DNA of 64,000 bases from Candidatus Altimarinota bacterium (lineage in GTDB: Bacteria > Patescibacteriota > Gracilibacteria > UBA4473). Each line of letters begins with the position of its first letter. Within the stretch, counting starts at the first letter, position 1. The translations under genes were made by a program, and so were the position numbers. Under the pieces are notes generated by a model that saw only the letters and a list, made by a program, of their open reading frames with translations, had not been told where the DNA came from and ran no database searches. The stretch covers positions 1,024,001 to 1,088,000 of the forward strand of contig OZ246423.1 in NCBI GenBank assembly GCA_965231215.1. The letters run 5' to 3'. Positions 5,701 to 56,084 of the stretch are shown one piece after another.

Positions 5701-5730
5701 GGTTGGTAAAATCAAAATTTAAACTATACT

Positions 5731-5757
5731 AATCGGGGTTGTGCCCCGATTTTTTTT
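5731..5757 (+). terminator. Intrinsic terminator after rpmA
   Basis: AATCGGGG-ttgtg-CCCCGATT followed by a T-run that abuts the uppS ATG. Confidence 0.7.
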
Positions 5758-30854: not shown

Positions 30855-30891
30855 GCGATGTTTATAAAACTTTTTCTAGAAAAGTCAATTA

Positions 30892-31314: not shown

Positions 31315-33785
31315 TAGGCAGCGACTATAGAAATAGGAGATCCCACAAAGTTGTATTTATTTCCTGGGTCATAGTGCTCAGGAACTCCTTCTGTTAGAAT
31401 ATTATTGGTTGGAGCATCCATACCAATAACTTCTATTCTTTCATTACGCTGTTGGATGAAGATAAGCTCTCTTCCAGTAGGAGAACTTAAGATCACTCCA
31501 GTATCTGTTTTCTCAATGATAACAAGGTCATTAATTGATCTAAAATTAGTTCGATTGATCATATCATCAGAAGTAGGAGGGTTTCCGTGTTGAAATTCTT
31601 GAAATTCAATGTCGATACTACTTCCAATTACTTTTTGTTTAAGAATTTTAAGTTGTTTATCTCTATTGGCTTCCATAGCTTCTTCAATATGTTTGTTATC
31701 GACTATATTTGATTGATCTTTGAGATAATGTAAAAATTTAGCAGAGCCACCTCGTGCTGGAGGAGCTGCATGTTTTGCCACATTATCACTTACTTGTTTA
31801 GTGTCTAACTCTAGGTTTTTTAGATCTTTGGCTTTTACTCGGTCTACTTCTAGTTTCCCTTTAGTTAAAACTTCCGCAGTTCTTAATTGGCTCATAGCTT
31901 CTTCAAATTCTTTGATTCTTGCTTCTGCTCTTTCGATAGCTTTCCCATTAGTTAGATGAGATGTAAGGGCTCCTCCACCAGCTGCCGCAGCAGGTGTAGA
32001 CCAGGTTTCAGCAGGAGGATCTTCTGGCACAAGATAATCAGTCCCATCTACTTTAATGGTAGTCCTACCTGTAGGAAGTGGTGTTGGAGCTTCAAAATGT
32101 GTATAAACTTTTTTTAGCTTATCTAAATCACCTTTATCTTTTTTATAGTCTTGGAGAGAGCTTTCCCAACTTTCTTGTAGCTCTTCAATTTTCTCAACAA
32201 AACTGTCAATTTTGTTAAGGTATGCTTCAAGTAAAGTTTTTTCTTCTTGTGGTAGGTCATTGACTATACCTTCAACTTTTCTTTTAAATACTTCATGTTC
32301 AGAGACAAAGGAACCTATTTCATCTAGTACGGTTTGATTTACATGTGATAGATTAATCACATCTTTTAATCCTCGACTTTTCCCTCGGGCTCCAAGACCG
32401 TTGTTGACGAGTTTTTTAGCTTTTTCGAAGTGTTTTTTAACTTCATCTTTTTCAAATTTTTTAAATTCAGGAGAGAAAGCTACTTCTTTTTTGCCTAGAG
32501 ATGTTTCCTCTTCAAGGTGAGCAATATAGCTCAAAAACTTTATTTTCAAACCTTTTGGCATAGAGCTTTTAATTAACGTAGTTCCAGCTGAAGTTTGTAA
32601 GAACCGCGCATAAGCTACAAATTCTTGATAAGGATTCAGCTGATCCTTGTTTGGAAAGTGCTGAAAGAGTGTTTCTCTATTAACTATTCCCTGACTATCT
32701 ACAAAAGGTTTTAGTTCTTTGAGTAAACCTGGGAGATCATTTTCTGGTGTTATTTCCTCACCAGGAACCTCTAACTTAGTCTTTATTGTATCAATCCTAA
32801 GGCCACTTTGGGTGGCATCAAATCCATCTCGTCTGTCACGAGCCAGGGTTCTAATATCTAAATTTTCATCCAAAGCTGTAGTTTCTAGAACTTTGTTTAA
32901 GTCTGTCTCATCCCAACCAAGTAGTTTATACATTTCTAATCTTTTTTCTTTTTCTAGCCCGCCAAAAAGAGATTTAGCAATATTGGTTGTAGCCGGATCG
33001 GTCATAATGTCATGTGTCAATGCTGGATCAAGCTCTTTTTCAACTCCTTCAATAATTTTTTTCTTTTGTTCGAAACTGAGGGTATCATTAAATTCTTGCT
33101 TAATTTGGCTCATTCTTTCGTTTTGGGCAGTTTCAACATCACTTTTCTTAGCGGCAATTTTTTCTTCTAGTTCAGAAAATACTTCATCGACAAAGCTAGC
33201 TCGGGTTTCAAAGTAAAATTTTTGTGAAGTGTTTGGGACACGATTACCTCCAAAGTTTTTCCAGAATCGGAAGAATTTCTTATTTTCTTCACTTTTGGTT
33301 CCGAGCTTAGTTTCGTATTCTCGTTGGTAGTTTTTTCGGAGGGTTTGAAGGGTGATAAGTGATCGGTTTACATTATCAATGGTGAGCACAGCTTCGTTTG
33401 AATTATCCTCAATATCACGAATCAGTCTTTGGTATTCAGCATTGTAGAAAACCCCATGAGAGCGTCGCCCTCGTAGTACATCAAAAATATCTTCTCTAGT
33501 TCTTTGCCTTAGGGTATCTATGTGCTTGTTCCAAGGCATTCGACCATTTTCAATATAGTCAGTCACCTCTAAGCCACGAATAGTACGGCTGTTGAAAGTA
33601 GTTAGGGCATCAATAGCTACTTCTTTGGCTTCGATTACTCGTGTTTTTTCTTCTTTTTCAGTACTTTTAGCCTTTAAAGCCTCAACTAAATCATCATTAA
33701 CTTCAGTGATGCGACCACTTGTATCTCTGTATACAAGAGGCTTAAATTGATTTAGTTGGTTCCTGAATTGTGGAAATAACTTCAT
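31314..33785 (-). CDS. Large hypothetical coiled-coil protein (823 aa)
   Basis: Long K/E-rich ORF; no recognised motif. Confidence 0.75.
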   Translation of the reverse strand: MKLFPQFRNQLNQFKPLVYRDTSGRITEVNDDLVEALKAKSTEKEEKTRVIEAKEVAIDALTTFNSRTIRGLEVTDYIENGRMPWNKHIDTLRQRTREDIFDVLRGRRSHGVFYNAEYQRLIRDIEDNSNEAVLTIDNVNRSLITLQTLRKNYQREYETKLGTKSEENKKFFRFWKNFGGNRVPNTSQKFYFETRASFVDEVFSELEEKIAAKKSDVETAQNERMSQIKQEFNDTLSFEQKKKIIEGVEKELDPALTHDIMTDPATTNIAKSLFGGLEKEKRLEMYKLLGWDETDLNKVLETTALDENLDIRTLARDRRDGFDATQSGLRIDTIKTKLEVPGEEITPENDLPGLLKELKPFVDSQGIVNRETLFQHFPNKDQLNPYQEFVAYARFLQTSAGTTLIKSSMPKGLKIKFLSYIAHLEEETSLGKKEVAFSPEFKKFEKDEVKKHFEKAKKLVNNGLGARGKSRGLKDVINLSHVNQTVLDEIGSFVSEHEVFKRKVEGIVNDLPQEEKTLLEAYLNKIDSFVEKIEELQESWESSLQDYKKDKGDLDKLKKVYTHFEAPTPLPTGRTTIKVDGTDYLVPEDPPAETWSTPAAAAGGGALTSHLTNGKAIERAEARIKEFEEAMSQLRTAEVLTKGKLEVDRVKAKDLKNLELDTKQVSDNVAKHAAPPARGGSAKFLHYLKDQSNIVDNKHIEEAMEANRDKQLKILKQKVIGSSIDIEFQEFQHGNPPTSDDMINRTNFRSINDLVIIEKTDTGVILSSPTGRELIFIQQRNERIEVIGMDAPTNNILTEGVPEHYDPGNKYNFVGSPISIVAA

Positions 33786-33805
33786 TTTTGCGCAAAAATC
33801 CCATT

Positions 33806-33834
33806 ATTTTACCACAAAAAGGCTCAAAAAACAA
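33806..33834 (-). promoter_or_regulatory. Putative extended -10 promoter
   Basis: Minus strand TTGTTT, 17 nt, TAAAAT within TGTGGTAAAAT; the same 11-mer lies upstream of the gene starting at 45524. Confidence 0.5.
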
Positions 33835-33862
33835 GGGTGCCACACCTTTTTTAAACTTATAT

Positions 33863-36787: not shown

Positions 36788-36792
36788 ATTAA

Positions 36793-39700
36793 TTAAATGT
36801 TATCAGCCGCCCGTGCAATTTCACCAGCAAGTTTTTCTCTAACACTGGCTTCATCATAGTGACTTAAATACTCTTCTTTAAGAAGGTCTAAAGCGACACT
36901 TCTAGGATCCGTAGCACTAGCCTCTACAAAATTACTGAGTCGATAAGCACATCGAGTTATGTCTCGAAGAGTAATAGGGTAGACAATATCTAAAATGTCA
37001 GTATTAGATTCAAAACCAGTGGGTTTATCGTTTACATATTGTTGTGCAAAATTGTATCTAATAACATCAGCCATTTTTACGAGCTCTAGAATTACTTGCA
37101 TATCAAATTGCTGTTTTTCATCAGCATCTATAGCTCCTGGAACTTGAGATCTATTTACATATTTATCCCACACCTTAACAAATTCGTTTTCTGATAAATC
37201 TGGATTATAAGTAAGATGTTGGAGTGAGTTAGTAGAACGAGCAATTTTTAAAGCTTCTGATGAAGCAAATTTTCTATCAAAAGGGGATTCTCCTAGTTCT
37301 TGTTTCCCATCTCTTCTGAGATGGTTATATTCAATTTCTATTTCTTGCATCCGACTTTTGGTTGCAGCTTGAGGGTCAAAGGTTCCTTCATATCCAGGAT
37401 TCATAGAACCTGCAATAACTACGCTCGGTTCCGTTTTAATAACTTTACCTCCACTAGTTTTTAGAGTCATTTGACGTTTACCATCCAAAAGAGAGTGTAA
37501 GAAAATTTGAGCTGACTCTGGCATCGCATTGAACTCATTAAAGTAGACTATCGCTCCTGGAGTTTGGATTCCTTCTACAATACTAGAAGGTACTTTTACA
37601 GTGTTTCCATCTTCTAGAAGGATTTCCTCACCCAAGTCAGCTTCAGTGGTCCATTTACTACAATCAAATGAAAAATAAGACCGGTTAGTATGATGAGCAA
37701 AAACTTGAAGTAAAACATCTTTACCAGTTCCAGTATGCCCCTTAAGCATAAGCATTCCTTCTTGCCTATCAGCCTGCATTTGGAATCTTTCAGCAATATC
37801 CTCAAGGTAACCTTGTTCTTCTTCACCAATAACCCAGCTTGGGTTTAGTTTTGGTACACCATTAATATATACCGGTTCAGAACTATTAATTTCATTTAAT
37901 TTCCTTTCGGCTTGTCTGAGATGAGGAATAAAATTTTGGGCACAGAATTCTGCGTATTGTTTGTAAAGAGTGGTGTATTGCTGTTTCCATTCTGGATTTT
38001 TTAGCTCTCCTTCTGGATGTTCCTCTGAAGGTTCGGTTCGTTCATTTTTTTCAGCGTATTTAGCTTTTAATCTGGTACGTAGGTCATCATGTTCTTTTTT
38101 TACATTGCCTCCGTTCATCCATTCATTAAGTAAACGAGAAATGTGTTTATATTGCTTTCGAGGAAGGTATCCTGGGGTAATTTCTTCACCTTTAGAATCA
38201 GCCCCAAGACGAAATTCTTGTTCTATACCTGTATCACCCCAGAGACGCTCTTGGGTTAGTTCACCTTTTTCATTGGTTATGGTGATACCAATATCTCCCA
38301 TAGCGGTTTTAGGATTATCGGTAAGAGTGGCTTGATTCATAATAAAGTCTAGCCGCGCGCTTTTTCGTCCACCTTTCTGAACTCGTTTCATAATTGGGGC
38401 ATTGATATGTCCAAAGGTATATACATTTTCTCCTCGGTCATTAGTTTTAGCATTTTGGCGTGCTATGATTTGGTTAATGACTTCGTAAGATTTTCGAGAA
38501 ATATCACTTTCTAATGCTTGAGCTTGAGGTACATTTTCAGACCGAATATCTTCAATTCCAGCTGTGATATTTTCAAAAGCTGGATCATTGGCAATAAATT
38601 CAGTTACCTCTTCTTTGGTAACCAGTCCAGATTCATTACTGAGAGTTTCAAAGTAATTATTAATATCGAGTTTAACATTTTCTACTTTTCTCATAAGAGC
38701 ACTTTCGGCTTCAGCACGAGCTTCTCCTCGTGCATCTTTAAAGCTACTTATTTTTTCTGCACAGATTCTGTGAATAGTTTCTTGAGATTGAAGAATGGCT
38801 AAACGAGCTTGTTCACCATCTTGTGAAGTTTGTTTGTAGTGTTCTTCCATACTTCTTAGATGGGCTATTCTTTCATTTCTATGCCAAACCATGTAGGCTT
38901 CATAAGTTTTTTTATTATCTATTTCACTTTCTACTTGTTCCACGATAGCCGCAAGGTCAGTTTCTAGACCGGATAGATGAGTTGTATAAAGGCTTTCTCT
39001 GTGAGATCGAGCGTTACTTAGAACTGCTTCAACATCCCTTTTAATGGTGCTTCCTTCTGCTAAAACTGGGTTAAAGTTTTGAAGAATTCGTAGACTCGGA
39101 GTTAGCTCATCCATTTGACTTGGACGTGAAGCTGCTTTGATTTTTGGCCCAACCTCGTTTACTAAAGCCTGGGCTCGATCTGTTTTTTTAGTTTCAATTT
39201 CATCGAAGATTGGTTTAAGGATGTAGTTTACATGAACTTCAGTAACGCCTCCGTCTTCTAGAGCTTGTTTTAATTCCGCTATAGATTTTTCAATGCCTCC
39301 AAAATCTTCGATAGTTTTGGCTTCATCTATTTGGGCACCAAGTCCATCTCTAATTTCTTTTGTTTTTTCATCTAATACTGGTTTTTCAGCATCGGTTACT
39401 TCATTTGGAGTTTCTTCACTTCCAGAAACAATAGAAGCAATATCAATACTGCTAGTTAATCGAATAGTCCGAATAGCATGTGAGAGCTCAGAAAGGTTTG
39501 ATTCACAGGTTTTAAGGTTTCCTTGGTCATCAATGATTTGTACTTGAGTTTCGGTAGTAGTGAAATCCTGAATCCCATCATATTGGAATAAAATTTCACC
39601 ATCATGTAGACCGATGAAGTAGATTTTTCCTTCTTCAGTAAGAATATTGATTATTTCTCCTCCTGGTACTTCTTTAATTTTTTTTACTTTTGAGTTTCGG

Positions 39701-40596
39701 ATTTCCTCAGGAAGTCGAATTGCATTCTTACTAGCTTCGTCTTCGTGGTTGAAAGTTACATGATAAAGATATTCTGGTTTTTCTTTGTCACAATAACTTA
39801 GACCGTCTCGAGATTTAGTTACGGCAGGATTCTGAATATTATCACTCAAAAACTCGTTCCCTCCATTATTGAGACTAACTACTTTTACTCCATTTCTATT
39901 AACGAGTGCTAGAAGCCTTCCATCTAAAGCTACAACATCATGGTTTTGTAAATCTAGACCATCTATTTGTCCATATATACTTTTGAGATCTTCATCTTGT
40001 TCATAGTTAAAAATAGTGAAACGTTTCCAATTATGTGGTGGCTCTGTTTGACCTTGCTCGTTGGTAGTTTTGAATATGATTTTTTCCCCTTTAGAATCAT
40101 AAAAAATGATGAATTTACCATCATCCAAAATGGCTGGCGTTCTGACTGGAACAAACTGACTTTGGACTAGCTGGCTGACTGCGATTTCACCAGAATTATT
40201 AGTTTGTATATTAATCAATTGTTTAAGTCTAGCGGCTTTTGTAGGATCGATTCCCTCTAGTTGATCTACACCACAGAGATTTCCATAAGTACTATCAATA
40301 ATGCTTATTGTGTCGGCGTCTTCTTTTTCTTCAGGTAATGTAAGACCTTCTTTTTCGAGCCATTGGTTTATGGTGTATTCGAGCTTTAGCTCATTTTCTG
40401 TAAAACTAGTATCCTCTATACCTTGATGATCTAGCACTCTTACAGTGCTGCCATCGATATAAAAAGAACAGTTTTTCCAAGAAAGTAGTTCACTACCTTC
40501 GGGGATTTGTTTTGCATTGAAGTCTTCAACGCGTTTGAAACTTGGGGAAGGCAGCCCTAAGTTTTTGTCCGCAGCCGTTTCATGTGATTTTGCCAT
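36793..40596 (-). CDS. MoxR/CbbQ/midasin-like AAA+ ATPase with long N-terminal beta-rich and helical regions
   Basis: Walker A GHTGTGKD, Walker B variant IVYFNEFN, LHSLLD, GSMNPGYEG, SR and ITLRD. Confidence 0.85.
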   Translation of the reverse strand: MAKSHETAADKNLGLPSPSFKRVEDFNAKQIPEGSELLSWKNCSFYIDGSTVRVLDHQGIEDTSFTENELKLEYTINQWLEKEGLTLPEEKEDADTISIIDSTYGNLCGVDQLEGIDPTKAARLKQLINIQTNNSGEIAVSQLVQSQFVPVRTPAILDDGKFIIFYDSKGEKIIFKTTNEQGQTEPPHNWKRFTIFNYEQDEDLKSIYGQIDGLDLQNHDVVALDGRLLALVNRNGVKVVSLNNGGNEFLSDNIQNPAVTKSRDGLSYCDKEKPEYLYHVTFNHEDEASKNAIRLPEEIRNSKVKKIKEVPGGEIINILTEEGKIYFIGLHDGEILFQYDGIQDFTTTETQVQIIDDQGNLKTCESNLSELSHAIRTIRLTSSIDIASIVSGSEETPNEVTDAEKPVLDEKTKEIRDGLGAQIDEAKTIEDFGGIEKSIAELKQALEDGGVTEVHVNYILKPIFDEIETKKTDRAQALVNEVGPKIKAASRPSQMDELTPSLRILQNFNPVLAEGSTIKRDVEAVLSNARSHRESLYTTHLSGLETDLAAIVEQVESEIDNKKTYEAYMVWHRNERIAHLRSMEEHYKQTSQDGEQARLAILQSQETIHRICAEKISSFKDARGEARAEAESALMRKVENVKLDINNYFETLSNESGLVTKEEVTEFIANDPAFENITAGIEDIRSENVPQAQALESDISRKSYEVINQIIARQNAKTNDRGENVYTFGHINAPIMKRVQKGGRKSARLDFIMNQATLTDNPKTAMGDIGITITNEKGELTQERLWGDTGIEQEFRLGADSKGEEITPGYLPRKQYKHISRLLNEWMNGGNVKKEHDDLRTRLKAKYAEKNERTEPSEEHPEGELKNPEWKQQYTTLYKQYAEFCAQNFIPHLRQAERKLNEINSSEPVYINGVPKLNPSWVIGEEEQGYLEDIAERFQMQADRQEGMLMLKGHTGTGKDVLLQVFAHHTNRSYFSFDCSKWTTEADLGEEILLEDGNTVKVPSSIVEGIQTPGAIVYFNEFNAMPESAQIFLHSLLDGKRQMTLKTSGGKVIKTEPSVVIAGSMNPGYEGTFDPQAATKSRMQEIEIEYNHLRRDGKQELGESPFDRKFASSEALKIARSTNSLQHLTYNPDLSENEFVKVWDKYVNRSQVPGAIDADEKQQFDMQVILELVKMADVIRYNFAQQYVNDKPTGFESNTDILDIVYPITLRDITRCAYRLSNFVEASATDPRSVALDLLKEEYLSHYDEASVREKLAGEIARAADNI

Positions 40597-40616
40597 TTTT
40601 TAATATAAACGAGCAA

Positions 40617-43600
40617 TTAAGGGGTAATACTAAAAGTAACTTCACCTGATGGGTGAACTTTTGCCGCTACCTCAGGAATTCCATTGGCAGGATCGGCTTT
40701 TTGTATTCGATAAAAATTTCCATTTGCTAGAATCTGTGATCCAGCAAAAAATCCAGCATCTCCTGGTTTTGAAGGGAAAGAAAACTCTCCAAGACCAGTT
40801 TTTTCAAAAAGTAATTTAATTTTCTTACCTAAAGCTCCAGTAACCGTAATAGAATTATTTGGAGCATTTGTAAGTTCCTGAACTCTTAGACTTTTGGTTT
40901 GTTTTGTGAAGTAAGTTGCATTCTCTAATGTAATAGCGTCAGGATTAAGTATTTCTAGTTTTTCAGTTTTTGGTTTTGTTACTGGTTCTTTTGGGAGCTT
41001 AGTAATTTGGAAAAAACTTAAACTTCCATCAGCATTCTCAACTTTTTCAATACGAATTCTTGAACCATCAATTTTACTAGTAAGTATGTTACCTTCTAGG
41101 ATGGCGTTAGCTTCAATCAACTCCATTTTTCCTTTTCTGGTAATGAAAAGTACATTTCCTGAACCGTCTTGGAAATTTAGATCTTTAGCCTCTCTTACCA
41201 GTTCAGTTATTTCATGAGTGTTGTTGTCTTTAAGTTTATCTGTGTTTATGTTTTTACCTTCTTTGGCTGATCCTAGACCGGCTTCAGCGGCCTTTCTAGA
41301 TTGAACTTTTCGTCCAACGGTATAGACTTCGTAGAAAGTACTACCGTCTTTATTCACAATTTTGCTATGAGCATCTTTAATTCCGGCCTCTTGTAATTGT
41401 CTTACGACGGTATTGGCTTCTTCTAGAGTTCGATGTTGAGAGACTGGATCACCTTTTTCTCCTTGTTTTTCAAGTTTTTTAATGAGTTCATTTCTCTGTG
41501 CTTCCAACTTTCGTTGTCTTGTCTCATGTTTGTTTTTTCTAAACCTCTTTGGAGTTTTTTCACTATGCTGTTGTATTTGATCATTCAGATTTTGAAGCTC
41601 ATTTACTGTCGTATTCTTTTTTGGTAGTGAAGTGAGGTGGACTTCGTAGATTGGTTTTTCTCCGCTAGTGACTTCTTTGATTTTTCCTGTAGCGCCAGTT
41701 TCTTGGATTTCTTTGAGTACCGCTTCTGCTTCGGTTCGGTTTTCATGCTTAGAAACTGACTCATTCTTATTGGCAGCTTCTTGCATTTGCTTAAGCAGTT
41801 GTGATCTTTCACCTTCTAATCTTCGGAGCTCTCGCCCTCGCCACAAAGCCTTAGCTTTACCTCCTTTTATTAAGGTTGGTTCTGGCATGGCTCTAAGTTC
41901 AGCAATACTGGCATTAACATCTTTTAATGCATCTGGGGCTGATTTTGGTTCCGCTTTAAGTAATTCTTGTCGGTATTGTCGTCGAAGTTCTCGATATTTT
42001 TGATTAATAGCGGCTATATCTTCTCTTCCTTTTAATACGGCTTCTTGGGCTATATCTCTGGCATCTTGAAGTTCTTTGATATGATCCGCGTTGTCCTCTT
42101 TCTTAGCTTTAGCCTCAACCAGTTGTTGTTCTTTTTGTCTGAGAGTTTTTTCAGCTTCGCTAAGTCTTTGACGGGCTTCAAGTTCTTTGACTCTGTTTTG
42201 ACGCATAGATCCGTGATACTTCGCTTCGGCGGCTCTTCCTTGAGCCGATTCTGTTTTTCGAATAGAGCCCCAAAGTCTTTTAACAGGGGCAGGAATCCAA
42301 TTTTGTCTTTTTGGTTTGACCCCCAATGAAGGAGGCCTGCTAACAGTTATAGTAGGGCTATGAGCTGCGATAACTTCAGGTTTAGTTTGAGGTTTTCCAT
42401 TGGCGCCTATTTCGGTAAATTCGAACGTTACATTATCACCTTTTTTTTGAGTAATTTTTCCCCTTCTTAATTTTCCATCTTTTTTTATAATGACGGGTTC
42501 TCCAGCGATGAATGGTTCCCCATTTATGTTTACAATGTCATGGGTCAATTGTGTATCAATTTCGTTGATCTGTTTCTTGGTGGCCTTGATTTTTGCTTCT
42601 ATGGCTTTTTGTGTTTTATCATGAGCTTCTTTTTTAATTTTTTTATTTGTAAGGTCGTTTTGTAGCGCTCGACTTTGAGCCTCTAGAGTTTCTAGGTCTC
42701 TTTGTCTAGCTTCTTTTTGTTTTTTGAGGTTAAACTTATAGGCTTCAACGGGGTCTTTTGGTGTTCTGGCAAAGAAATCTTTGGCTCTTTCTTTCATTTG
42801 TTTTCGCGCCTTTGGGGCTAAGCTGGCTACTTTTTTGGGTTCAGCACCCCGGCCTAATTGTGGAAGTAAGAAAAACAGCATCCACTCTTTGGCAAATTGT
42901 TCACCGCTCATTTCATGTCCAATGTGTCCATTGGTGGCGCTGTGCGCAGTGGTAGCTGTAATGGCCATGAGTCCACTATCAAATCCAGTTCGGAGGGTTC
43001 TTTGAGCTAGGTAATTTCCAAAACCGCTTCGGGTTCTTTTTCCAGTATTTCGTACAGCCCAGTTTGGAAGAGTTTCTCCAAGGGTTCGTACTTCCTGGAT
43101 GCCTAATTTTTGCATTCCTTTTCCATAAACAAAATTTCCTCCTCGGAATACGTTGAACATAAGGGCACTCATAAGGTTTCCGTTGAGAGAAGTATCCATT
43201 TGTCCTTCAACGATCATGTTTTGGGCTTGGTTAAACATTAACCCCTCGAAAGAAGCAGCTCCAATTCCAGCAGCTAGTCTGGCGCCTCGGATACTATTGG
43301 CTTTAGCGCCAACATTAGCTACTGCGTCAGCTCCAGCCATGGCTGCGGCTGCCCATGAAAGTCCTTTTGCAGCGGCCCATCTAGCTCCTGCGGCTAGGCC
43401 TCCAGAGACCAATATAAGTGGAATATTGATGGCAATTTCTTTCCAAATCCAATCTTTGGTAGTTTCGGTCATATCCCATCCTTTCTCTAGTCCATGAATA
43501 TCTTGATAATCGGTTAAAGCTTCCGCGACTAGACCATCAACTCCAAGGTCACTAGCGGTTTTTTCGTTAATAGCAAAGTGAAGCTTGGCTCGATCAATCA

Positions 43601-45524
43601 TTTGATCACGCGTATAGGTGCGGTCTACTTTAGAAAGCATTTCAAGTACTTTGTAGGCCACATTTTTTACTTCAGTCACGTCGCTTGGGTTGCTGGCTTT
43701 GAATTTTGTCTCAGTATTATTTTTGGGGTCTCTGATAGTGAGTTCCTCCCCACTAGCCAGTTGACCTCTTATGCGTTCAGCAGTTCCATCATCTTCAAAT
43801 TTATTAATAATTTCACTTACACTTGGTAGATCATCATCAATGTCTTCAATTTCGTCTCGAACATCGTTATCACTTACTTTTGATTTAGCTTCTAAGATTT
43901 TAGGGTGACCAGCAAAGAGTGATCCATACATCTCTGCTGCGGCATCGTACAAACTTTCATCATGGAAAAGTCTTTTAGCAAGAGCTAATTGAGCTTTTTT
44001 GAATTTTGCCACATCTTTAAGAGAAACAGCCCCAGCGGGTTTATGAATACCAGCATCAACTACATCAGAAGACTGCCAAAACTTTAAATAAGTTTTATGG
44101 AATTGGTCTAGGGTAGTACTAAGCGCTGGCTTATTCGATTTTAGCTTCACAATAGCACTTTCTAGGTCAGTAGCTGCGCCAGAGATAATAAGTCCTTGCA
44201 GAGTGTTTGTAAGTTCAGTGTATTTTTGTGCATCTCGTATAATGGCATTATCTGCCTGAGAGGTGGCACTGCTTTCAAACGCATTTTGAATGGCCCATTC
44301 ACCTTGTCTGTCTAAAGCGAGTGAGTTTATATAACTTCTATAGAGTGTTAGTCCGGTAACATCCTGAGTTTTAGCTACCAGGGTGTTTTCCATGGCCTCA
44401 ATTGACCCCAGTATTTTTTCAACTTGGGTTCCAACTTCTGCATCACTTTTTAGACTTTCTAAAAGATCTTTAGCTTTTTTAGTGTTTTCTTCCTTATTAG
44501 TTGTAAGTAACCATTGAGCTTCAAAAATTGTTCTTTGGTTGGCTGAGAATTTTGGATTTTTAGAAAGTTTTTCAAATAGCTCTGAAGTTTCTTTTGGAGT
44601 GGTTGGAAGAGTTTCGCCTGTAGCGATATAAAATTCCATTTTAGCCACTATTTCCTCGCGTTCCTCTGGTTTATGCTGATTAAGCCAGGTGAATACATCT
44701 TTGTATTCTACAAAGGCGGAATGAGCGGTGTTAAACTTTTTAAAATCTCCCGCTACATCTGGAGGCAAAGAGGTCAGAGGGATGGTTAGATCTAGAATCT
44801 GAGATTCAACCTCCGTAGTAGCAATATTGGTTCCAGTATTTACTGGAGGTTTAGGACATTGGTCACTTTCTATGGCACTGATAACCGCACCAGTATTTAT
44901 GTTTATGGTTACGAGTTTTCCATCTATACATTCTGTTTTAGTTTTTACTTCAGGGTGTGGTCTTTCAGACTCTAGAGGTTGATCATCTCTTGGTGGGGGT
45001 TCTTGTTGTTGAGTGTCGATTCTGATTTTCCCATCTAGGTACTCTCCAGAAGCAATAGCTTCATGATTGTCGAGCCTTACATTCTGTCGTTTTTTCTTTC
45101 TTCTCCCTTGGCTGTCGGTGTAGTAAGTTATTTTTTGAGCTTTTCCAGAGTACTGGATTTTGAACCAATAATGATCAGCTCCACCACTATTTCCACTAGT
45201 ATCATGAGTTTTATCTTCAAGCCCTAAAATTTTCACTTTAGCGCCCTTTGGCACCACGAAATCTTCCTCATGATCACCGGCATGAGTTCTGAGTCTTAGT
45301 CCAGTGTGAAGTGTAATAATTCTTGAATGAGTATTTTCAATGATGACTTGCTTTTTGAGTTCATCCAGATTTAGACCTGTTCTCATTGAGAGTATTTCAA
45401 GTTGATCAGATAAGCTCCCCTCTACATGCGCATCAGTGCCTCTCTCCACATTGTTGGGGGAGGGCTTTTTCCAGACGAATTTAGTTGCCTGAGGGTCTTG
45501 GGTAAAAGTAAATACTAGTTTCAT
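40617..45524 (-). CDS. Giant multidomain protein (1635 aa): SH3b-like, Gly/Ala-rich hydrophobic core, coiled coils, two SPOR-like repeats
   Basis: Long ORF; the domain calls are by-eye pattern matches (see findings). Confidence 0.7.
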   Translation of the reverse strand: MKLVFTFTQDPQATKFVWKKPSPNNVERGTDAHVEGSLSDQLEILSMRTGLNLDELKKQVIIENTHSRIITLHTGLRLRTHAGDHEEDFVVPKGAKVKILGLEDKTHDTSGNSGGADHYWFKIQYSGKAQKITYYTDSQGRRKKKRQNVRLDNHEAIASGEYLDGKIRIDTQQQEPPPRDDQPLESERPHPEVKTKTECIDGKLVTININTGAVISAIESDQCPKPPVNTGTNIATTEVESQILDLTIPLTSLPPDVAGDFKKFNTAHSAFVEYKDVFTWLNQHKPEEREEIVAKMEFYIATGETLPTTPKETSELFEKLSKNPKFSANQRTIFEAQWLLTTNKEENTKKAKDLLESLKSDAEVGTQVEKILGSIEAMENTLVAKTQDVTGLTLYRSYINSLALDRQGEWAIQNAFESSATSQADNAIIRDAQKYTELTNTLQGLIISGAATDLESAIVKLKSNKPALSTTLDQFHKTYLKFWQSSDVVDAGIHKPAGAVSLKDVAKFKKAQLALAKRLFHDESLYDAAAEMYGSLFAGHPKILEAKSKVSDNDVRDEIEDIDDDLPSVSEIINKFEDDGTAERIRGQLASGEELTIRDPKNNTETKFKASNPSDVTEVKNVAYKVLEMLSKVDRTYTRDQMIDRAKLHFAINEKTASDLGVDGLVAEALTDYQDIHGLEKGWDMTETTKDWIWKEIAINIPLILVSGGLAAGARWAAAKGLSWAAAAMAGADAVANVGAKANSIRGARLAAGIGAASFEGLMFNQAQNMIVEGQMDTSLNGNLMSALMFNVFRGGNFVYGKGMQKLGIQEVRTLGETLPNWAVRNTGKRTRSGFGNYLAQRTLRTGFDSGLMAITATTAHSATNGHIGHEMSGEQFAKEWMLFFLLPQLGRGAEPKKVASLAPKARKQMKERAKDFFARTPKDPVEAYKFNLKKQKEARQRDLETLEAQSRALQNDLTNKKIKKEAHDKTQKAIEAKIKATKKQINEIDTQLTHDIVNINGEPFIAGEPVIIKKDGKLRRGKITQKKGDNVTFEFTEIGANGKPQTKPEVIAAHSPTITVSRPPSLGVKPKRQNWIPAPVKRLWGSIRKTESAQGRAAEAKYHGSMRQNRVKELEARQRLSEAEKTLRQKEQQLVEAKAKKEDNADHIKELQDARDIAQEAVLKGREDIAAINQKYRELRRQYRQELLKAEPKSAPDALKDVNASIAELRAMPEPTLIKGGKAKALWRGRELRRLEGERSQLLKQMQEAANKNESVSKHENRTEAEAVLKEIQETGATGKIKEVTSGEKPIYEVHLTSLPKKNTTVNELQNLNDQIQQHSEKTPKRFRKNKHETRQRKLEAQRNELIKKLEKQGEKGDPVSQHRTLEEANTVVRQLQEAGIKDAHSKIVNKDGSTFYEVYTVGRKVQSRKAAEAGLGSAKEGKNINTDKLKDNNTHEITELVREAKDLNFQDGSGNVLFITRKGKMELIEANAILEGNILTSKIDGSRIRIEKVENADGSLSFFQITKLPKEPVTKPKTEKLEILNPDAITLENATYFTKQTKSLRVQELTNAPNNSITVTGALGKKIKLLFEKTGLGEFSFPSKPGDAGFFAGSQILANGNFYRIQKADPANGIPEVAAKVHPSGEVTFSITP

Positions 45525-47536: not shown

Positions 47537-48058
47537 ATGAAAAAATTTCTCCCAGTTCTGGTTCTGCTTATAGCTTTAACGGCTTGTGAAAAACGAACCG
47601 AAGACAGTCCATCAGCGTCCCCTCTTGATATGCCAGGAGGAACCACTAAACAAGAATTTAAAGCTGAAAATGAATCTAATACTAACCAAACATCAGAAAT
47701 GACTAAAAAAGACACCCCAGCCGCCGAAGAGGTAACCGATCTAAAGATTGATATTGAAGTCGAAGGGGAAGGCGCCGTGGCCAAAGCAGGTGATACGGTA
47801 AAAGTGCACTATACGGGAACGCTACAAGACGGTACAAAATTTGATTCTAGTCGAGATCGAGGACAGCCATTTCAGTTCAACCTTGGAGCTGGACAAGTGA
47901 TTGAAGGTTGGGACGTAGGCGTTGAAGGGATGCGCGTTGGAGAACAACGAACCCTTACTATCCCACCACATATGGGATACGGAGAATACGGTATTGGACC
48001 TATTCCTGGAAACGCGGTTCTTATTTTTGATGTGGAGCTCGTAGAAATTGTGGATTAG
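47537..48058 (+). CDS. FKBP-type peptidyl-prolyl isomerase lipoprotein
   Basis: Lipobox LTAC; [27 protein letters not shown] and [13 protein letters not shown]. Confidence 0.93.
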
Positions 48059-48103
48059 GTTAATTGCTTTAGTAGATTTTTTCATCAATTAAAAAATATA
48101 ACA

Positions 48104-48118
48104 CCCCATGCGATGGGG
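48104..48118. terminator. Hairpin between convergent genes
   Basis: CCCCAT-gcg-ATGGGG. Confidence 0.45.
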
Positions 48119-48143
48119 GATTAGAGGTGAATCTTCAAAATTT

Positions 48144-48914
48144 TTATGTATTGGTATCCAAAAAATCTATAACTTCTTCGGCAATTTGTTCTGGCGTGTA
48201 CTCACTCTTTTTCATAAAGGCGTCTACCCCTAAAGATTCCGCTTTTTTTACATCTTTTTGTTGGTTGAGATTACTAGTAACAAAGACCGGAGTATTGAGT
48301 TTAGCGTTGCCTTTAATATTTTTAATAACTTCAAACCCATCCATATCTGGCATAAGGATGTCTAGTAGTATGGCGTCTGGCTGAATTTCAACGGCCTTCG
48401 TGATTCCGTCAAAGCCATTATTACTGGCATAAACATGACAGTTTTTTTGTTCTAAAGAGAGGGTTAATAGATCAATTTCATCTTCATTATCCTCAATTAT
48501 TAAGATGGCATAGCCGTTCATTTGTCCTGGCTTATCCATGCTATCTACTCGGAGATAGTCTTTCACTCTTTGAATCACTTGTTGGGGCGTAAGCTCAGAC
48601 TTATTGATATAATCGGTAACGCCTAACCTATAAGCCTCTTTGATAATTTTATCATCAACAAGATTACTAATAATTAGGATAAGGCAGTCTAGGTTTGTAT
48701 TTTGACGGAGGCCTTCAATCACCTCTAAGCCATCCATATTGGGCATCATGATATCTAGCAGTATGACATCAGGGTTCATTGAGGCTGCTTTTTGAATACC
48801 TATGGAGCCCTCTTCACTAGAGTCAACCGTATATCCAGCCTGTGAAAAGGCTAAAGTATATATAGTTCTTAAATCAGGATTATCCTCTATAATAAGGATT
48901 TTCTCTTGTTTCAT
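48144..48914 (-). CDS. Response regulator with two tandem receiver domains and no output domain
   Basis: Two copies of ILIIEDN...PD.ILLDI.MP.MDG...SNL...KSE.TP.Q. Confidence 0.9.
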   Translation of the reverse strand: MKQEKILIIEDNPDLRTIYTLAFSQAGYTVDSSEEGSIGIQKAASMNPDVILLDIMMPNMDGLEVIEGLRQNTNLDCLILIISNLVDDKIIKEAYRLGVTDYINKSELTPQQVIQRVKDYLRVDSMDKPGQMNGYAILIIEDNEDEIDLLTLSLEQKNCHVYASNNGFDGITKAVEIQPDAILLDILMPDMDGFEVIKNIKGNAKLNTPVFVTSNLNQQKDVKKAESLGVDAFMKKSEYTPEQIAEEVIDFLDTNT

Positions 48915-48928
48915 TTTGTATTTGTTTG

Positions 48929-51052
48929 CTAACTTTCATTGTAAGGAAGCGTAAACTTAAACGAAGAACCTGAGTTAACCTTGCCTTCACTTTTGATCCA
49001 GATTGTGCCACCAAATTTTTCAATAATTTGTTTTACAATATTGAGTCCCAAGCCACTTCCAGAGTAAGACTTTTGGAGGGGATTTTCAGCTTGTTGAAAC
49101 TTGTTGAAAATGTACTCTTGTTTGTCTTTAGGAATACCAATACCATCGTCTGTAATTTCTATGAGAATATTTTCTTTGTTTTTATAGCCAATTTTGACCT
49201 CAATATGTCCGTTCTCTGGCGTAAATTTGTAAGCGTTTCCAAGGAGATTAGAAAATACCATATAGAGTTTTTCTGGATCTATATGGACAGTGGGATTTAT
49301 TTTTTTGGTATTTTTTAGAGTCAGAGTTATGTTTTTCTTTTTACAGATGACTTTAAATTCTTTAATTGTAGATTTTAGAAAAGAGGTGAGCTTTATATTT
49401 TCTGAATTAAACTCCATCTTTCCTGATTCAAGCTTGCTAATATCCAGCATCTTATTTACCAGCTGTATGAGATCATTGGTACTATTAAAGATTCGCTGAA
49501 CAAATTCTGTTTGTTTAGTATTGAGTTTTCCATAATCTCCGGAGAGTAGAAAGTCAGTATAGCCTTTAATAATGCTCATGGGGGTTCTCAACTCATGTGA
49601 AGCAATAGAGAGAAAATCATCTTTAAGATGATCTAGTTCTCTAAGTCGGTCGTAGGATTTGGTGAGTTGAATATTGGTCTTTTGGAGGGCTTCGGTTTTT
49701 TCTTGAACCTCATCCGTGAGTTTTTGGTTGTAGTAGATCACAGACAGGGAAAGAGAGATGTAATTGGCAGCCTTTTCCAGGGCTTCAATTTCTCGAGCAA
49801 AATAGGGATTTTCATACGGCTTTTTCCCCAAAACAAAAAACCCAAAGAGCTTTTTTTTATTTTTACAAAGCGGGATGCAGACCTCACCTAAATCTTTTAA
49901 TTCATGGTAAAAAGGGGGAGCAATACTGGAGTCTTCGGCTTTTATTTCTACCTCTTCAAATACCAAAGGCGCCTTGTTTTTTTGGAAGTAGGCACATAGG
50001 TGTTTGTAATTTTTTCTATCTTTTTCCGGAATAAGTATCAGGTTGGCTTTGCTTATATTTAGTTCTTTCCTGAAGGTATGATTTATAGCTTTTTTAAGAG
50101 GGCTAATTTGAGAATGGAAACTCTGTTGATTGATGAATTTTTGGATTTCCTCTGCAAAATGTTTGGTATTAGAAAGTCTGAGTAGTTTTTCAAAAAACGA
50201 TACCTTTATAATAGAGGTAAAAAAGTTATAAAAAAGGATCGCCGTTGTGAGGAAGATGATGTCACTTCTAATGCCCAGTTCCATGTGAGCTTGTTCATTT
50301 ACATAAAAGAAAACAAGATAGGTACAAGCTAGAGCCAAGAAAAACGAAATAACTTTTTGTAAAAAATCTAAAATAATCCTCTGATATTCAAAGAACCTAA
50401 ACCGTATGACGACGTAAGCAAAGAGGATCATCTGACCAGAAGCCAGGACATTCAGAGTGGGAACAATATTAATATCGTAGAACAAAAAGAAATTAGTAGA
50501 TCCAAAACCGAATGTAAGCACATCCCCAATAAGCACATAAGCAATCTGTCTCTGCCTGATCCCGGTGTGTTTAGAATAGTTTTGAGCCAGTACTATCAGT
50601 GATAGTAGAATATAGCCCATCCATATAGCCAACCAGAAGTGATAGAGAATTCCAGTATTAGCCCAGTATCCAAAATCAAATTTAAAGACCACCTCTTCAA
50701 TAAATAAAGTAGTGGGGACTGTGCAGACAAAGCAAAGGTTTATGAGGTATCCAAAACGGATATAGTATTTGTATTGCTCTTGAATTTTTAGCAGACACGC
50801 CACAAAGTGGAAGTGCGCTACAGCTATAAAAATAGCTCCAATATGCAGCATTCGAAAGGAAAGTTCGGATAAATTTTTGTCATAAGGAACCGCCGGGAAA
50901 AAATACATAGCTGCCCACAGAGACATAAAAAAGCAGAATATGGCAAAGGTTCTGTTGATCGGGTTTTGTGGATCTCGGCTATAAGTAAAAATCCCAGAGA
51001 TGATTCCCACAATAGTGTTGAAGATAGTCCCAAGTAGTAAAAACGAATACAT
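48929..51052 (-). CDS. Sensor histidine kinase, N-terminal 7TM-type domain, GAF-like region, HisKA-HATPase
   Basis: Hydrophobic N-terminal ~280 aa; ASHELRTP, NLLGNAYKFT, DDGIGIP and GSGLGL. Confidence 0.93.
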   Translation of the reverse strand: MYSFLLLGTIFNTIVGIISGIFTYSRDPQNPINRTFAIFCFFMSLWAAMYFFPAVPYDKNLSELSFRMLHIGAIFIAVAHFHFVACLLKIQEQYKYYIRFGYLINLCFVCTVPTTLFIEEVVFKFDFGYWANTGILYHFWLAIWMGYILLSLIVLAQNYSKHTGIRQRQIAYVLIGDVLTFGFGSTNFFLFYDINIVPTLNVLASGQMILFAYVVIRFRFFEYQRIILDFLQKVISFFLALACTYLVFFYVNEQAHMELGIRSDIIFLTTAILFYNFFTSIIKVSFFEKLLRLSNTKHFAEEIQKFINQQSFHSQISPLKKAINHTFRKELNISKANLILIPEKDRKNYKHLCAYFQKNKAPLVFEEVEIKAEDSSIAPPFYHELKDLGEVCIPLCKNKKKLFGFFVLGKKPYENPYFAREIEALEKAANYISLSLSVIYYNQKLTDEVQEKTEALQKTNIQLTKSYDRLRELDHLKDDFLSIASHELRTPMSIIKGYTDFLLSGDYGKLNTKQTEFVQRIFNSTNDLIQLVNKMLDISKLESGKMEFNSENIKLTSFLKSTIKEFKVICKKKNITLTLKNTKKINPTVHIDPEKLYMVFSNLLGNAYKFTPENGHIEVKIGYKNKENILIEITDDGIGIPKDKQEYIFNKFQQAENPLQKSYSGSGLGLNIVKQIIEKFGGTIWIKSEGKVNSGSSFKFTLPYNES

Positions 51053-51133
51053 CGAACTTCATTTTAGCGTCAGTTTCAATTTTGTTCTACGTAAATTTCC
51101 CTTTTCCTAGATTGCCTTAACTTAAATTTAATA

Positions 51134-52573
51134 TTACTTGTGGGCGGTGATTATTAATTGAGGTCCATTAGCACTTATACGCTTTATGTTTACTTTAGAG
51201 GCGGGAATCTCAGCTTCTTCGCAGAGACGGAACATATCGGTCTCATTTCTTCGGAAAAGGTACCAGTTGGTTATTCTTAAAAAAGCGGCTTCATTATGGT
51301 CAGTATTGAATTGTCCGATTCTAAAACTTCCACTAGGTTTGAGCATTCTATAAAAATGTTTTAGAGCCTTAGCTGTAAATTTATCATCAAAATAATCGAG
51401 CAAACCTACCGTAAGGATTTCGTCGTAATTGGCGGTAGTTTTCCGGTTTCCGATTTCGCGAATAATGTTACACTCTTCTATTCTGAAATTGGGGTGTTGT
51501 GCGAGCCTGTTTTGAGCGAAACCTACGGCGTCAGGATCCCCATCTACAGATCGCCAATCAAGGTGTTCAGGGTTAAGGTTTGCTATTTGCATTTGTTTGA
51601 TAAGGTCGGCTTCAAGCCTGGCTGGGCCACTAGCAAAATTAAGTACTTTTAGCGGTTTTTCTTGGGCAAGCTCAACGGCTCTATCCCTAAGGAGATCATC
51701 AATAATGGTATATCTTCGCTGGGCTACATCTTCGGCAGAAGTGGTAGAAAGTAAGGTTTGGTTCCAATTTTTGACCCTGTAATCCCCAGCAATGTCTTGT
51801 TCGTCTGATATTTGAAAGTTATAAATAGCCTCCATCATATCAAAGGTTCCGGCATATCCTCGAGGGCGCCAAAGACTTTGTCCCATCAGACTCATGGGGG
51901 AGAAGGCCATCCCGAATTCAGCAATAATCTGCATGAATTGGTCTGGACATAATTGGCGGGCTTCAATAGTCGCTTCTATGCCCTGACAGAGTTTTAAAAA
52001 TTCTTCTTGTTGGGCTTTATCTTGCGGGCCTCCTTGGTCCACTAGTTTTTTTATTCGTGCCAGGATTTTAGTGAATATTTCTTTATTGAGTCCCTCTGTG
52101 TTTGGAGTCTCAAAGAGTGGAGGAGCATGCCTATTTGTAAAAAGCATATCCTCTAAAATTTTAGTTCTCCGAATAATTTCTGAAGTAAACCCAGGAATAT
52201 TTAAAGCGGCTGCAAAAATGCTCCGCATATTTGACGGGACTTGAGTTAAAAGAGCTTGAGGATTTATTTGGTTATCCCCTACGAGCCATTGATCCTTGGC
52301 CTGAGGATGAAGTAAGCCTACAAATACTTTATAGATACCAGGGGTATTACTAATAAAAAGAATTTCTTCTGGAATGCGGCAAGATTGTGTTTGATGCCAG
52401 AGCTCATGGTTGGTTGAAGGGGTGAGGCAATAACTAATTTGTCCATTGATATGAGCTTCCAGATTTACCAAAGGGATAGGGGGTTTGGGTAATCCAAAAT
52501 TTTGGCCTAAGACAACAGGTACTTCATCTAAATCACTGCCAGGCTCTAGGTTTTTTTTTGTGAGAGAGTTCAC
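51134..52573 (-). CDS. Class I SAM-dependent methyltransferase, PhcB-like
   Basis: RPRGYAGTFDMM...Y, VLNFASGPA, VDGDPDA, YDEILTVGLLDYF, LKPSG and WYLFRR; GTG start. Confidence 0.72.
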   Translation of the reverse strand: MNSLTKKNLEPGSDLDEVPVVLGQNFGLPKPPIPLVNLEAHINGQISYCLTPSTNHELWHQTQSCRIPEEILFISNTPGIYKVFVGLLHPQAKDQWLVGDNQINPQALLTQVPSNMRSIFAAALNIPGFTSEIIRRTKILEDMLFTNRHAPPLFETPNTEGLNKEIFTKILARIKKLVDQGGPQDKAQQEEFLKLCQGIEATIEARQLCPDQFMQIIAEFGMAFSPMSLMGQSLWRPRGYAGTFDMMEAIYNFQISDEQDIAGDYRVKNWNQTLLSTTSAEDVAQRRYTIIDDLLRDRAVELAQEKPLKVLNFASGPARLEADLIKQMQIANLNPEHLDWRSVDGDPDAVGFAQNRLAQHPNFRIEECNIIREIGNRKTTANYDEILTVGLLDYFDDKFTAKALKHFYRMLKPSGSFRIGQFNTDHNEAAFLRITNWYLFRRNETDMFRLCEEAEIPASKVNIKRISANGPQLIITAHK

Positions 52574-55423: not shown

Positions 55424-55442
55424 TTTTAGATAAATTTTGAAT

Positions 55443-56084
55443 ATGAAATTTGCGCCATTACTCATTTTGATTTTAGGCCTTATCCTTGTTGGCTGTGGGG
55501 GCCCAGAGATTGCTGAGGATCGTCCCAAAACTGGAAAAATTGTAGCGTTGGGGGATAGCAATACAGAAGGGTATGGGGTAGAAGAATCAGAAACCTATGT
55601 GAGTTTGCTCAATAAAAAACTCCAAGAGGAAGGTTACACCGAATATGAAGTGATTAACCTGGGTGTTAGTGGTGATAAAACCAGCGATGGACTCAAACGG
55701 GTAGGGGCTGTGCTCGAACAAGATCCGGAAATTGTGATGGTAGCCCTTGGGGGAAATGACTTTTTACGAGGACAACCTATGGCAAAAGTACAACAAAACC
55801 TCAGAGACATTATCATTGCTGTACGGGCCCAAAAAGCAGACGCTCTTTTGGTCGGTGTTATCGCTCCTCCTACTAGAGGTTTGGGATATATGGGGAGTGC
55901 CAAAGATATGTATAAAGCGGTCGCCAAAGAATTTGAAATCCCACTTTTCCCTAATATTCTTAAAGGCATTAGCCTAGATCAACGGTATATGCAGTCAGAC
56001 AAAATTCATGCCAACCCTAAAGGACATGAGGTGATTGCCGAAAACATGTGGGAGTATCTGCAGCCTCTGTTAAGAGAAAATTAA
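55443..56084 (+). CDS. SGNH/GDSL arylesterase lipoprotein (TesA-like)
   Basis: Lipobox LVGC; ALGDSNTEG, GVSGD, LGGND and DKIHAN. Confidence 0.9.
   Translation: MKFAPLLILILGLILVGCGGPEIAEDRPKTGKIVALGDSNTEGYGVEESETYVSLLNKKLQEEGYTEYEVINLGVSGDKTSDGLKRVGAVLEQDPEIVMVALGGNDFLRGQPMAKVQQNLRDIIIAVRAQKADALLVGVIAPPTRGLGYMGSAKDMYKAVAKEFEIPLFPNILKGISLDQRYMQSDKIHANPKGHEVIAENMWEYLQPLLREN

Follow-up and report, generated by a model that had tools for sequence, protein, structure and literature searches.

A methyltransferase, a membrane histidine kinase and a tandem-receiver protein in a Candidatus Altimarinota genome: a candidate make-and-sense signalling cassette

A 64,000-nucleotide stretch of the genome of a Candidatus Altimarinota bacterium (GenBank assembly GCA_965231215.1, contig OZ246423.1, positions 1,024,001 to 1,088,000 of the forward strand; hereafter the window, whose own numbering is used throughout) contains three consecutive open reading frames (ORFs) on the minus strand. 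They encode, in order, an S-adenosylmethionine (SAM)-dependent methyltransferase, a histidine kinase and a tandem-receiver protein, and are analysed here as a candidate cassette for making and sensing a small molecule. A preliminary description of the locus had reported three co-oriented genes, which the ORF listing bore out. The features of the cassette are as follows.

51134..52573, minus strand: 479-aa SAM-dependent methyltransferase (ORF with a GTG start)
51821..51868, minus strand: methyltransferase family signature RPRGYAGTFDMMEAIY, residues 236-251, upstream of SAM motif I (translation; invariant or nearly invariant columns)
Minus strand, methyltransferase residues 310-321: SAM motif I, VLNFASGPARLE (translation)
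51053..51133, minus strand: spacer of 81 nt between the methyltransferase and kinase genes, with no terminator-like hairpin and with TAAAAT near the kinase ATG
48929..51052, minus strand: 707-aa membrane histidine kinase (ORF, Pfam, hydropathy)
50387..51022, minus strand: HisKA_7TM sensor domain, kinase residues 11-222 (Pfam, region-wise identities)
48941..49624, minus strand: kinase core, HisKA residues 477-544 and HATPase_c residues 592-704 (Pfam)
48144..48914, minus strand: 256-aa tandem-receiver protein, REC1 at about residues 6-117 and REC2 at about 137-247 (ORF, Pfam)
48104..48118, minus strand: terminator-like hairpin and T-run, 26 nt past the regulator stop codon (consensus match only)

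The intergenic gaps are 81 nt between the methyltransferase and kinase genes and 14 nt between the kinase and regulator genes. The kinase gene had been credited with a −10 box of its own. The hexamer TAAAAT is indeed present 11-16 nt before its ATG, but no −35 element was seen at the proper spacing, and a consensus scan of the minus strand found no promoter-like or terminator-like site between the methyltransferase and kinase genes. Since no such site separates the first two genes and a hairpin follows the third, a single transcript across the methyltransferase and kinase genes is plausible. The hairpin likely marks the end of the operon. The start codon of the methyltransferase gene is uncertain, as residues 1-50 are poorly conserved and were folded with low confidence. 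A mobile or foreign island was considered and rejected; the GC content is only slightly low (0.360 in 48001-50000, compared with 0.36-0.43 across the window). No integrase or repeats were seen, though no search aimed at them was made.

The genome under study (G000) was compared with those of relatives (other G-labels), among them a complete genome (G004) and another genome (G003) of the same genus. Loci from the compared genomes carry L-labels (L002-L026, for example, are public loci) and homologous proteins carry P-labels. Two profiles were used: A1, built from four sequences (the 479-aa methyltransferase and its three closest metagenomic homologues), and A3, a model of the methyltransferase family with 310 positions.

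In Pfam, the methyltransferase gave only sub-threshold matches to generic class I families (residues 304-443). The best of these was Methyltransf_12, with 26.4 bits against a cut-off of 30, and Methyltransf_25, _31 and _23 also matched; NCBIfam had no specific family for the cassette proteins. Close homologues were few, namely three metagenomic proteins with 43-45% identity, and metagenome scans with A1 and P0003 yielded no confirmed relative. The wider family is large: among 1.84 billion cluster representatives, A1 matched 2380 at E ≤ 1e-3, a number that falls to 711 at E ≤ 1e-10 and to 12 at E ≤ 1e-30. Most of these family members are proteins of about 300 aa that cover residues ~160-460. 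The family signature consists approximately of KPxGYAGDFxxIDxIY, LNxASGPxR, DLIWSAGLFDYFxD and WxLxHRS. All four motifs are found in the 479-aa methyltransferase, at residues 236-251, 310-321, 390-395 (GLLDYF) and 437-442 (WYLFRR). They are invariant or nearly so among the relatives, and the signature motif is also present in 150 family representatives; the motifs quoted in the preliminary description are therefore a family signature and not a chance resemblance. A3 matched the methyltransferase at E 8.5e-82 over model positions 10-307 of 310, reaching upstream of the Rossmann core. Several relatives pass the threshold of PF12147 (Methyltransf_20), the orthologue in G017 scarcely so (21.6 bits, cut-off 21), and a subgroup of ~480-aa family proteins joins a cyclic-nucleotide-binding domain with PF12147. 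Among the matches listed, which are relatives of relatives, 9 of 120 bear the JGI name 'extracellular factor (EF) 3-hydroxypalmitic acid methyl ester biosynthesis protein', which we take to be the KEGG name for phcB.

Two members of the family were encountered in other settings. One is a family-type domain, 33.5% identical to a family methyltransferase, within an annotated type I polyketide synthase of Enterobacter ludwigii (plasmid NZ_CP134637.1, 46740-47513). The other, in Luteimonas sp. J29 (L002, 7198-8289), has no kinase nearby; after it comes a protein whose YbjN domain is described as a 'putative sensory transduction regulator'.

Three parts make up the methyltransferase: a helical N-terminal extension (about residues 50-160), then a helical lid specific to the family (about 160-300), and finally the Rossmann core (304-479). 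The AlphaFold2 (AF2) model (pLDDT 89.7, pTM 0.86, residues 1-50 disordered) shows an all-helical N-terminal half above the Rossmann core. The first ~110 structured residues form an extension confined to a small clade (P0002-P0004, P0006-P0008 and G017), and for residues 50-230 there was no usable Protein Atlas match. The best structural match was PDB 3ocj, a structural-genomics entry from Bordetella parapertussis named 'putative exported protein' (VIA Z 21.6, root-mean-square deviation 4.4, 273 aligned residues spanning model residues 61-479), which A3 also matched at E 4.8e-12 over the Rossmann core; 3ocj differs in having 300 residues and in being without the extra N-terminal extension. The further nearest chains were SgvM (Z ~20), TmtA/GtmA, Coq5, the CurJ and citrinin C-methyltransferases and juvenile-hormone acid methyltransferase. 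Searches of solved structures by profile gave only a weak glycine-sarcosine methyltransferase match with A1 and generic class I methyltransferases with A3. No hydrophobic segment was apparent from hydropathy. The protein is predicted, on the strength of its modelled fold, to be a soluble SAM-dependent methyltransferase of small molecules.

Its relation to PhcB, the signal synthase of Ralstonia named in the preliminary description, was judged indirectly, by way of two proxies: the JGI name given above and an operon of Paraburkholderia. A tblastn search of plasmids with one protein of the ~480-aa subgroup led to plasmid pPHS1_P of Paraburkholderia graminis, where genes for a methyltransferase (468 aa), a kinase (445 aa) and two receivers (134 and then 344 aa) stand in a row, in a record without phc gene names. 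PhcB and PhcQ homologues are described from Ralstonia, Cupriavidus and Paraburkholderia (PMC6989110). The 479-aa and 468-aa methyltransferases aligned by BLASTP over residues 232-447 (E 6e-15, 24% identity over 229 columns) and by hhalign (98.3%), with the four signature motifs in register, while their N-terminal halves gave no alignment. In a tree of 58 family members (FastTree, 272 columns, midpoint-rooted, Shimodaira-Hasegawa-like supports), the Paraburkholderia methyltransferase grouped with that of locus L011 (support 0.935), and a separate clade of 19 (support 0.998) comprised 18 sequences from Patescibacteria-type loci and one from a metagenome-assembled genome of Pseudobdellovibrionaceae. 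From these comparisons the 479-aa methyltransferase appears to be a distant relative in the PhcB-like family, not an orthologue. The PhcB-like identity proposed earlier is thus partly supported, through the match of the core and its motifs to the Paraburkholderia protein; the 479-aa protein falls outside the PhcB-like clade, and its N-terminal half differs.

The kinase matched HisKA_7TM (PF16927, 38.5 bits, cut-off 28.6, residues 11-222), HisKA (64.8 bits) and HATPase_c (100.6 bits). Hydropathy placed eight or nine hydrophobic segments in its first 282 residues; two hydrophobic helices are additional to HisKA_7TM. The middle region is probably a divergent GAF-like one; sub-threshold GAF matches were found only in the kinase orthologues of G017 and G007. 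The kinase is the sole PF16927 match in the genome, which holds two HisKA kinases and three receiver-containing proteins. In the regulator, Pfam recognized two Response_reg domains (143 bits) and no output domain, in agreement with its earlier description as a receiver-only protein without a DNA-binding domain. Its receiver halves are 44% identical to each other, and both keep the acidic pocket, the acceptor Asp, the Ser and the Lys in an alignment read by eye.

Linkage of the enzyme to such kinases was surveyed in two samples. The public loci (n = 25) were chosen solely by two methyltransferase peptides, and all 25 encode a family methyltransferase. In 20 of them a kinase gene follows directly on the same strand, with gaps under ~50 nt or overlapping; three more have a kinase within three genes (L004, L012, L020) and two have none (L002, L003). 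A Pfam scan, which covered 74 of the 179 neighbouring ORFs at these loci, identified HisKA_7TM in 19 of the 21 loci with kinases scanned, the kinases of L011 and L018 being hybrid kinases without this domain. The second sample consisted of 400 other genomes drawn evenly from the phylum, of which 25 matched the family model at the cut-off of E ≤ 1e-10. The match extended to the family-specific region at 13 of these 25 loci, and a kinase gene lies directly downstream in 12 of the 13, the thirteenth stopping at a contig edge. At the other 12 loci only the Rossmann core matched and no kinase was found within 1.5 kb. In G017 and G007, both relatives that have the enzyme, it is encoded directly upstream of a kinase orthologue (47% and 38% identical, respectively). 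The linkage of methyltransferase and kinase is very tight and widespread. Conservation of the linkage to HisKA_7TM kinases is supported, and a chance adjacency of the two genes was rejected on these counts.

The cassettes of Saccharibacteria and other Patescibacteria (L005-L026, L059-L074) likewise encode a methyltransferase of the family, and the gene that comes directly after it specifies a HisKA_7TM kinase. They differ in several respects: their methyltransferases are of ~300 aa and form the separate clade noted above, their kinases, at ~540 aa, are ~170 residues shorter than the 707-aa kinase, and an adjacent receiver gene was not found in most of them. They often have a PlsC-type acyltransferase upstream of or fused to the methyltransferase and a second class I methyltransferase downstream. 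Of the 23 loci scanned, 10 encode a PF01553 acyltransferase next to the methyltransferase, and in three more (L012, L015, L022) the two are fused. This gene context points to lipid-like chemistry. At L012, from an uncultured bacterium, an Autoind_synth/FeeM-type GNAT (2336-3115; PF00765, 52.8 bits) is encoded between the acyltransferase-methyltransferase fusion and a split HisKA_7TM kinase; at L025 an acyl-CoA dehydrogenase gene lies upstream.

So tight a coupling, with genes that overlap in many loci, might also reflect a partnership between proteins, in which the methyltransferase acts in the manner of CheR on the kinase or receiver itself as an adaptation enzyme, or forms a regulatory complex with them. 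Weak matches to CheR domains are in line with this: NF007902 matched the 479-aa protein with 13.1 bits against a cut-off of 435 (E 0.041), PF01739 matched relatives at E 0.001-0.007, and the CheR chain 5ftw_A matched the generic core of A3 at E 3.1e-8, among many generic methyltransferases. The fold neighbours, on the other hand, are small-molecule methyltransferases with a helical lid, and CheR was not among the 50 chains listed by VIA. PhcB, a probable homologue, makes a small-molecule ester (PMC8578825). The acyltransferase fusions indicate lipid chemistry, and family members also occur without a nearby kinase (L002, L003) and inside a type I polyketide synthase. We therefore consider a CheR-like role very unlikely.

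At the same site in the complete genome of the same genus (G004), a different enzyme is found. G004 has the same neighbourhood, with flanking proteins 61-86% identical to those of G000 (histidyl-tRNA synthetase 64%, pyridine-nucleotide oxidoreductase 77%, 587-aa ATPase 84%, 218-aa protein 86%, GDSL lipase 61%). In place of the cassette it encodes a 246-aa protein, a HisKA_7TM kinase that likewise has 707 aa, and a single receiver (L045, G004:C1:445000-458000, 4908-8183). The HisKA-HATPase cores of the two kinases are 59% identical, the highest value among the 15 homologues ranked, compared with 18% for the 7TM regions and 24% for the middle regions. The 246-aa protein (model pLDDT 67) had only GNAT acyl- or acetyltransferases as top matches, all of them weak (best E 7.5e-5, TM 0.45). 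Its family also occurs upstream of kinase homologues in G032, G034, G016, G023 and G048 (phmmer E 1e-5 to 1e-21). It is fused to a SET domain in G048 and to a class I methyltransferase in G023. An ornithine/arginine-decarboxylase-type gene precedes the GNAT-like gene in G016 (L046), G034 (L053) and G048 (L054), and loci with decarboxylase, GNAT-like protein and kinase are perhaps a second type of enzyme-sensor cassette, one that would make an acylated amine.

When the sensors of 16 kinases were compared, the 7TM regions of G000, G017, G007, G015 and G051a formed one group, with 30-53% mutual identity and at most 24% identity to the rest. A PhcB-family enzyme is encoded upstream in three of these five and in none of the 11 other kinases. 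These comparisons are suggestive of an upstream enzyme type that co-varies with the membrane sensor, independently of the kinase core.

Some further arrangements were seen upstream of or around kinase homologues. A 733-aa protein in G015 (L049, 48-2246) and a 582-aa protein in G033 (L052, 4445-6190) match each other at E 1e-57; at the C-terminus they resemble class I methyltransferases, the former with a Methyltransf_23 match (E 0.001) and the latter with no Pfam match. A stretch, GHFPEAEIVP, is possibly reminiscent of hot-dog dehydratases. In G003, a 3.6-kb contig (L084, G003:C22:1-3648) carries a 215-aa sensor-less kinase core (976-1623) by the histidyl-tRNA synthetase gene; this may be a remnant, or the site may be arranged differently there.

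The methyltransferase could also be a metabolic enzyme that makes an intracellular metabolite or cofactor, with the two-component system regulating it or being co-regulated with it, so that its product is not the ligand of the kinase. The generic sequence of the family, with its sub-threshold Pfam matches, and the many ~300-aa members of unknown role would fit such a function. The kinase gene, however, comes directly after the methyltransferase gene in 20 of 25 loci of the first sample and in 12 of 13 of the second, in three separate methyltransferase clades, and it is the sensor domain, and not the kinase core, that changes along with the type of enzyme. A purely metabolic role seems distinctly unlikely to us.

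A role in membrane-lipid handling would place enzyme and kinase in a homeostatic loop. The methyltransferase, found elsewhere with a PlsC-type acyltransferase, would act on lipids or free fatty acids that the cell has scavenged, either to remodel them or to detoxify them as methyl esters, and the kinase would monitor membrane composition or fatty acid load. PF01553 acyltransferases beside or fused to the enzyme in 13 of 23 loci are consistent with this, as is a kinase sensor that is almost wholly membrane-embedded. The genome is without detected lipid synthesis or activation genes, so that lipids would be taken from outside. At a distance of three genes, the plus strand (55437-56084) encodes a lipase/acylhydrolase of the GDSL type, lipoprotein-like at its N-terminus, which could release fatty acids from host lipids. 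Against this loop, no acyltransferase was found anywhere in G000, and the cassette is patchily distributed, although genes with a housekeeping role should be present more widely. Orthologous kinase cores, moreover, pair with chemically unrelated enzymes, which fits ligand-specific sensing better than general membrane sensing. On balance, we find a lipid-handling role unlikely.

We favour the reading that the three genes form a signalling cassette of the make-and-sense, or convert-and-sense, type, in which the product of the methyltransferase would be the ligand of the kinase; the chances of this reading being correct seem to us evenly balanced. The soluble methyltransferase would methylate a small, probably lipid-like, carboxylate-bearing molecule, and the methylated product would partition into the membrane. 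There the multi-helix HisKA_7TM sensor of the downstream kinase may detect it, whereupon the kinase would phosphorylate the tandem-receiver protein. Because it has no DNA-binding domain, the tandem receiver may act as a relay or a sink, or by binding another protein. The product, or the substrate, is favoured as the ligand of the sensor because of the small-molecule fold, the homology to a signal-synthase family, the fusions to lipid enzymes, the near-obligate linkage in three methyltransferase clades and the co-variation of enzyme and sensor. We infer a lipid-like product that leaves the cell and serves as a cue of population or of host proximity, and the same applies to the output of the cassette.

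Several observations weigh against the make-and-sense reading. In the tree, the 479-aa methyltransferase lies in an 'extended' clade (support 0.918), apart from the Paraburkholderia protein, and because the two are in different well-supported clades, the substrate of the PhcB-like enzyme is not transferable to it; PF12147 did not match the 479-aa protein at E ≤ 0.1. The cassette is rare: a search with the single protein found the enzyme in two of 60 relatives (G017, G007) and in none of four same-genus genomes, and A1 found it in two of 43 genomes of its own family (G000, G017). Two members of the 7TM group are without the enzyme, namely G015, which has another methyltransferase-bearing protein, and G051a, which has no enzyme. 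One recombination tract could partly explain the co-variation: the upstream gene adjoins the 5' part of the kinase gene, and both could be replaced at once. As the relatives compared are kin and not independent samples, the sample is small and such a single tract is possible, the co-variation is suggestive and not proof of a coupling between enzyme and sensor. No acyltransferase gene lies next to the G000 cassette. Searches of the whole genome for ketoacyl synthase (PF00109), acyl carrier protein (PP-binding, PF00550), PlsC-type acyltransferase (PF01553), DegV (PF02645) and AMP-binding acyl-activating enzymes (PF00501) gave no matches, while control genomes matched.

The genome in question, a single contig of 1,326,059 bases rated 99.3% complete, holds one methyltransferase of the family, and the genomes of the relatives and of the phylum sample are of a similarly small kind (~0.5-2 Mb). 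A lack of fatty-acid synthesis genes had been anticipated, conditionally, in the preliminary description, and the family searches agree with it. Since these lipid families gave no matches, the precondition of an endogenous 3-hydroxyacyl pool looks unmet. A fatty-acid substrate would have to be imported, given the absence of detected lipid synthesis and activation genes, which keeps open the idea of a host cue.

A broader interpretation, which we put forward as speculative and rather improbable, is that interchangeable modules of an enzyme and a membrane sensor on a conserved kinase core provide private chemical channels in ultra-small bacteria unable to make or activate fatty acids. Here, a host-derived carboxylate, for example a fatty acid (free or 3-hydroxy) that the lipase encoded nearby would liberate, would be converted into a membrane-soluble methyl ester read by the cell's own 7TM sensor, reporting host contact or kin density. 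The sister species would have swapped in a GNAT-type amine acylase and an unrelated, matching sensor at the same site, a pherotype-like diversification across enzyme classes.

At lower coordinates of the window lies a run of five successive very large minus-strand ORFs (27912-45524) of 980, 823, 974, 1267 and 1635 aa. Pfam recognized just two domains in this run, namely AAA_5 of the dynein type in the protein of 1267 aa and a transglutaminase core in that of 974 aa; the 980-, 823- and 1635-aa proteins had no Pfam family match.

Literature searches returned no description of this methyltransferase-kinase pairing. Queries for PF12147, Methyltransf_20 or K19620, and for PhcB with cyclic nucleotide-binding, likewise found nothing, and the papers found on HisKA_7TM dealt with archaeal kinases. 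A survey of quorum-sensing genes in the candidate phyla radiation (CPR) treats PhcS-like matches as probable false positives, and PhcB is absent from its main text, supplements aside (PMC7567580). We regard as new the extended methyltransferase clade, the tandem receiver, the host genome without detected lipid genes, and the exchange, at one and the same site, of both enzyme class and sensor while the kinase core is conserved. To our knowledge, almost nothing has been established about how CPR bacteria sense their hosts or each other, and a conserved, compact enzyme-kinase pair offers a directly testable entry into this subject. With no more than two HisKA kinases encoded in the 1.33 Mb of the genome, one of them here, the cassette represents a large share of the organism's sensory capacity. 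If the within-genus swap of enzyme and sensor on a conserved core proves general, it would show how new signal-receptor pairs evolve by module exchange.

Among known systems, the cassette is closest to Phc. PMC8578825 describes PhcB as making methyl 3-hydroxymyristate, which is sensed by PhcS, and the phc operon as encoding receiver proteins without DNA-binding domains, as the preliminary description had it. The cassette resembles this system in the order methyltransferase, membrane histidine kinase, receiver without a DNA-binding domain (PMC8578825), and in a methyltransferase core homologous to that of the phcBSRQ-like operon of Paraburkholderia. Synthase and sensor also co-vary in both systems, the Ralstonia PhcB and PhcS sequences sorting by signal type (PMC8578825).

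The most Phc-like layout of the cassettes seen is that of L011 (1928-8734), where a FadL/TodX porin, a 569-aa family methyltransferase, a hybrid kinase and a REC-HisKA-HATPase protein are encoded in a row; the last has the domain make-up of PhcR, a receiver and a histidine kinase (PMC8578825).

The cassette studied here differs from Phc in its methyltransferase, which belongs to another clade and has an unrelated N-terminal half, and in its sensor. The latter combines HisKA_7TM, two further helices and a GAF-like region, compared with a weak MASE8 match in the Paraburkholderia kinase. Alignment of the two kinases by BLASTP was confined to their cores (residues 440-703, 21% identity, E 5e-10), with no significant match between the membrane parts. 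No PhcR-type receiver-kinase protein is encoded in the cassette, where the sole regulator by Pfam is the REC-REC protein, a tandem receiver in place of PhcQ, and the host genome is without detected fatty-acid synthesis genes. The Phc-analogous module suggested earlier is accordingly retained as regards gene order and set aside as regards a PhcS-like sensor and a PhcR-type protein. The cassette would work like Phc, but we do not file it as Phc because orthology of the enzyme, a PhcS-type sensor and a PhcR-type protein are all wanting.

A second parallel is provided by CqsA/CqsS of Vibrio and LqsA/LqsS of Legionella. Their synthase is a pyridoxal phosphate-dependent acyl-CoA transferase, not a methyltransferase. 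By logic only, the cassette may be likened to these systems, in which an alpha-hydroxyketone synthase is encoded beside a membrane kinase with multiple passes, which perceives its hydrophobic signal inside the membrane.

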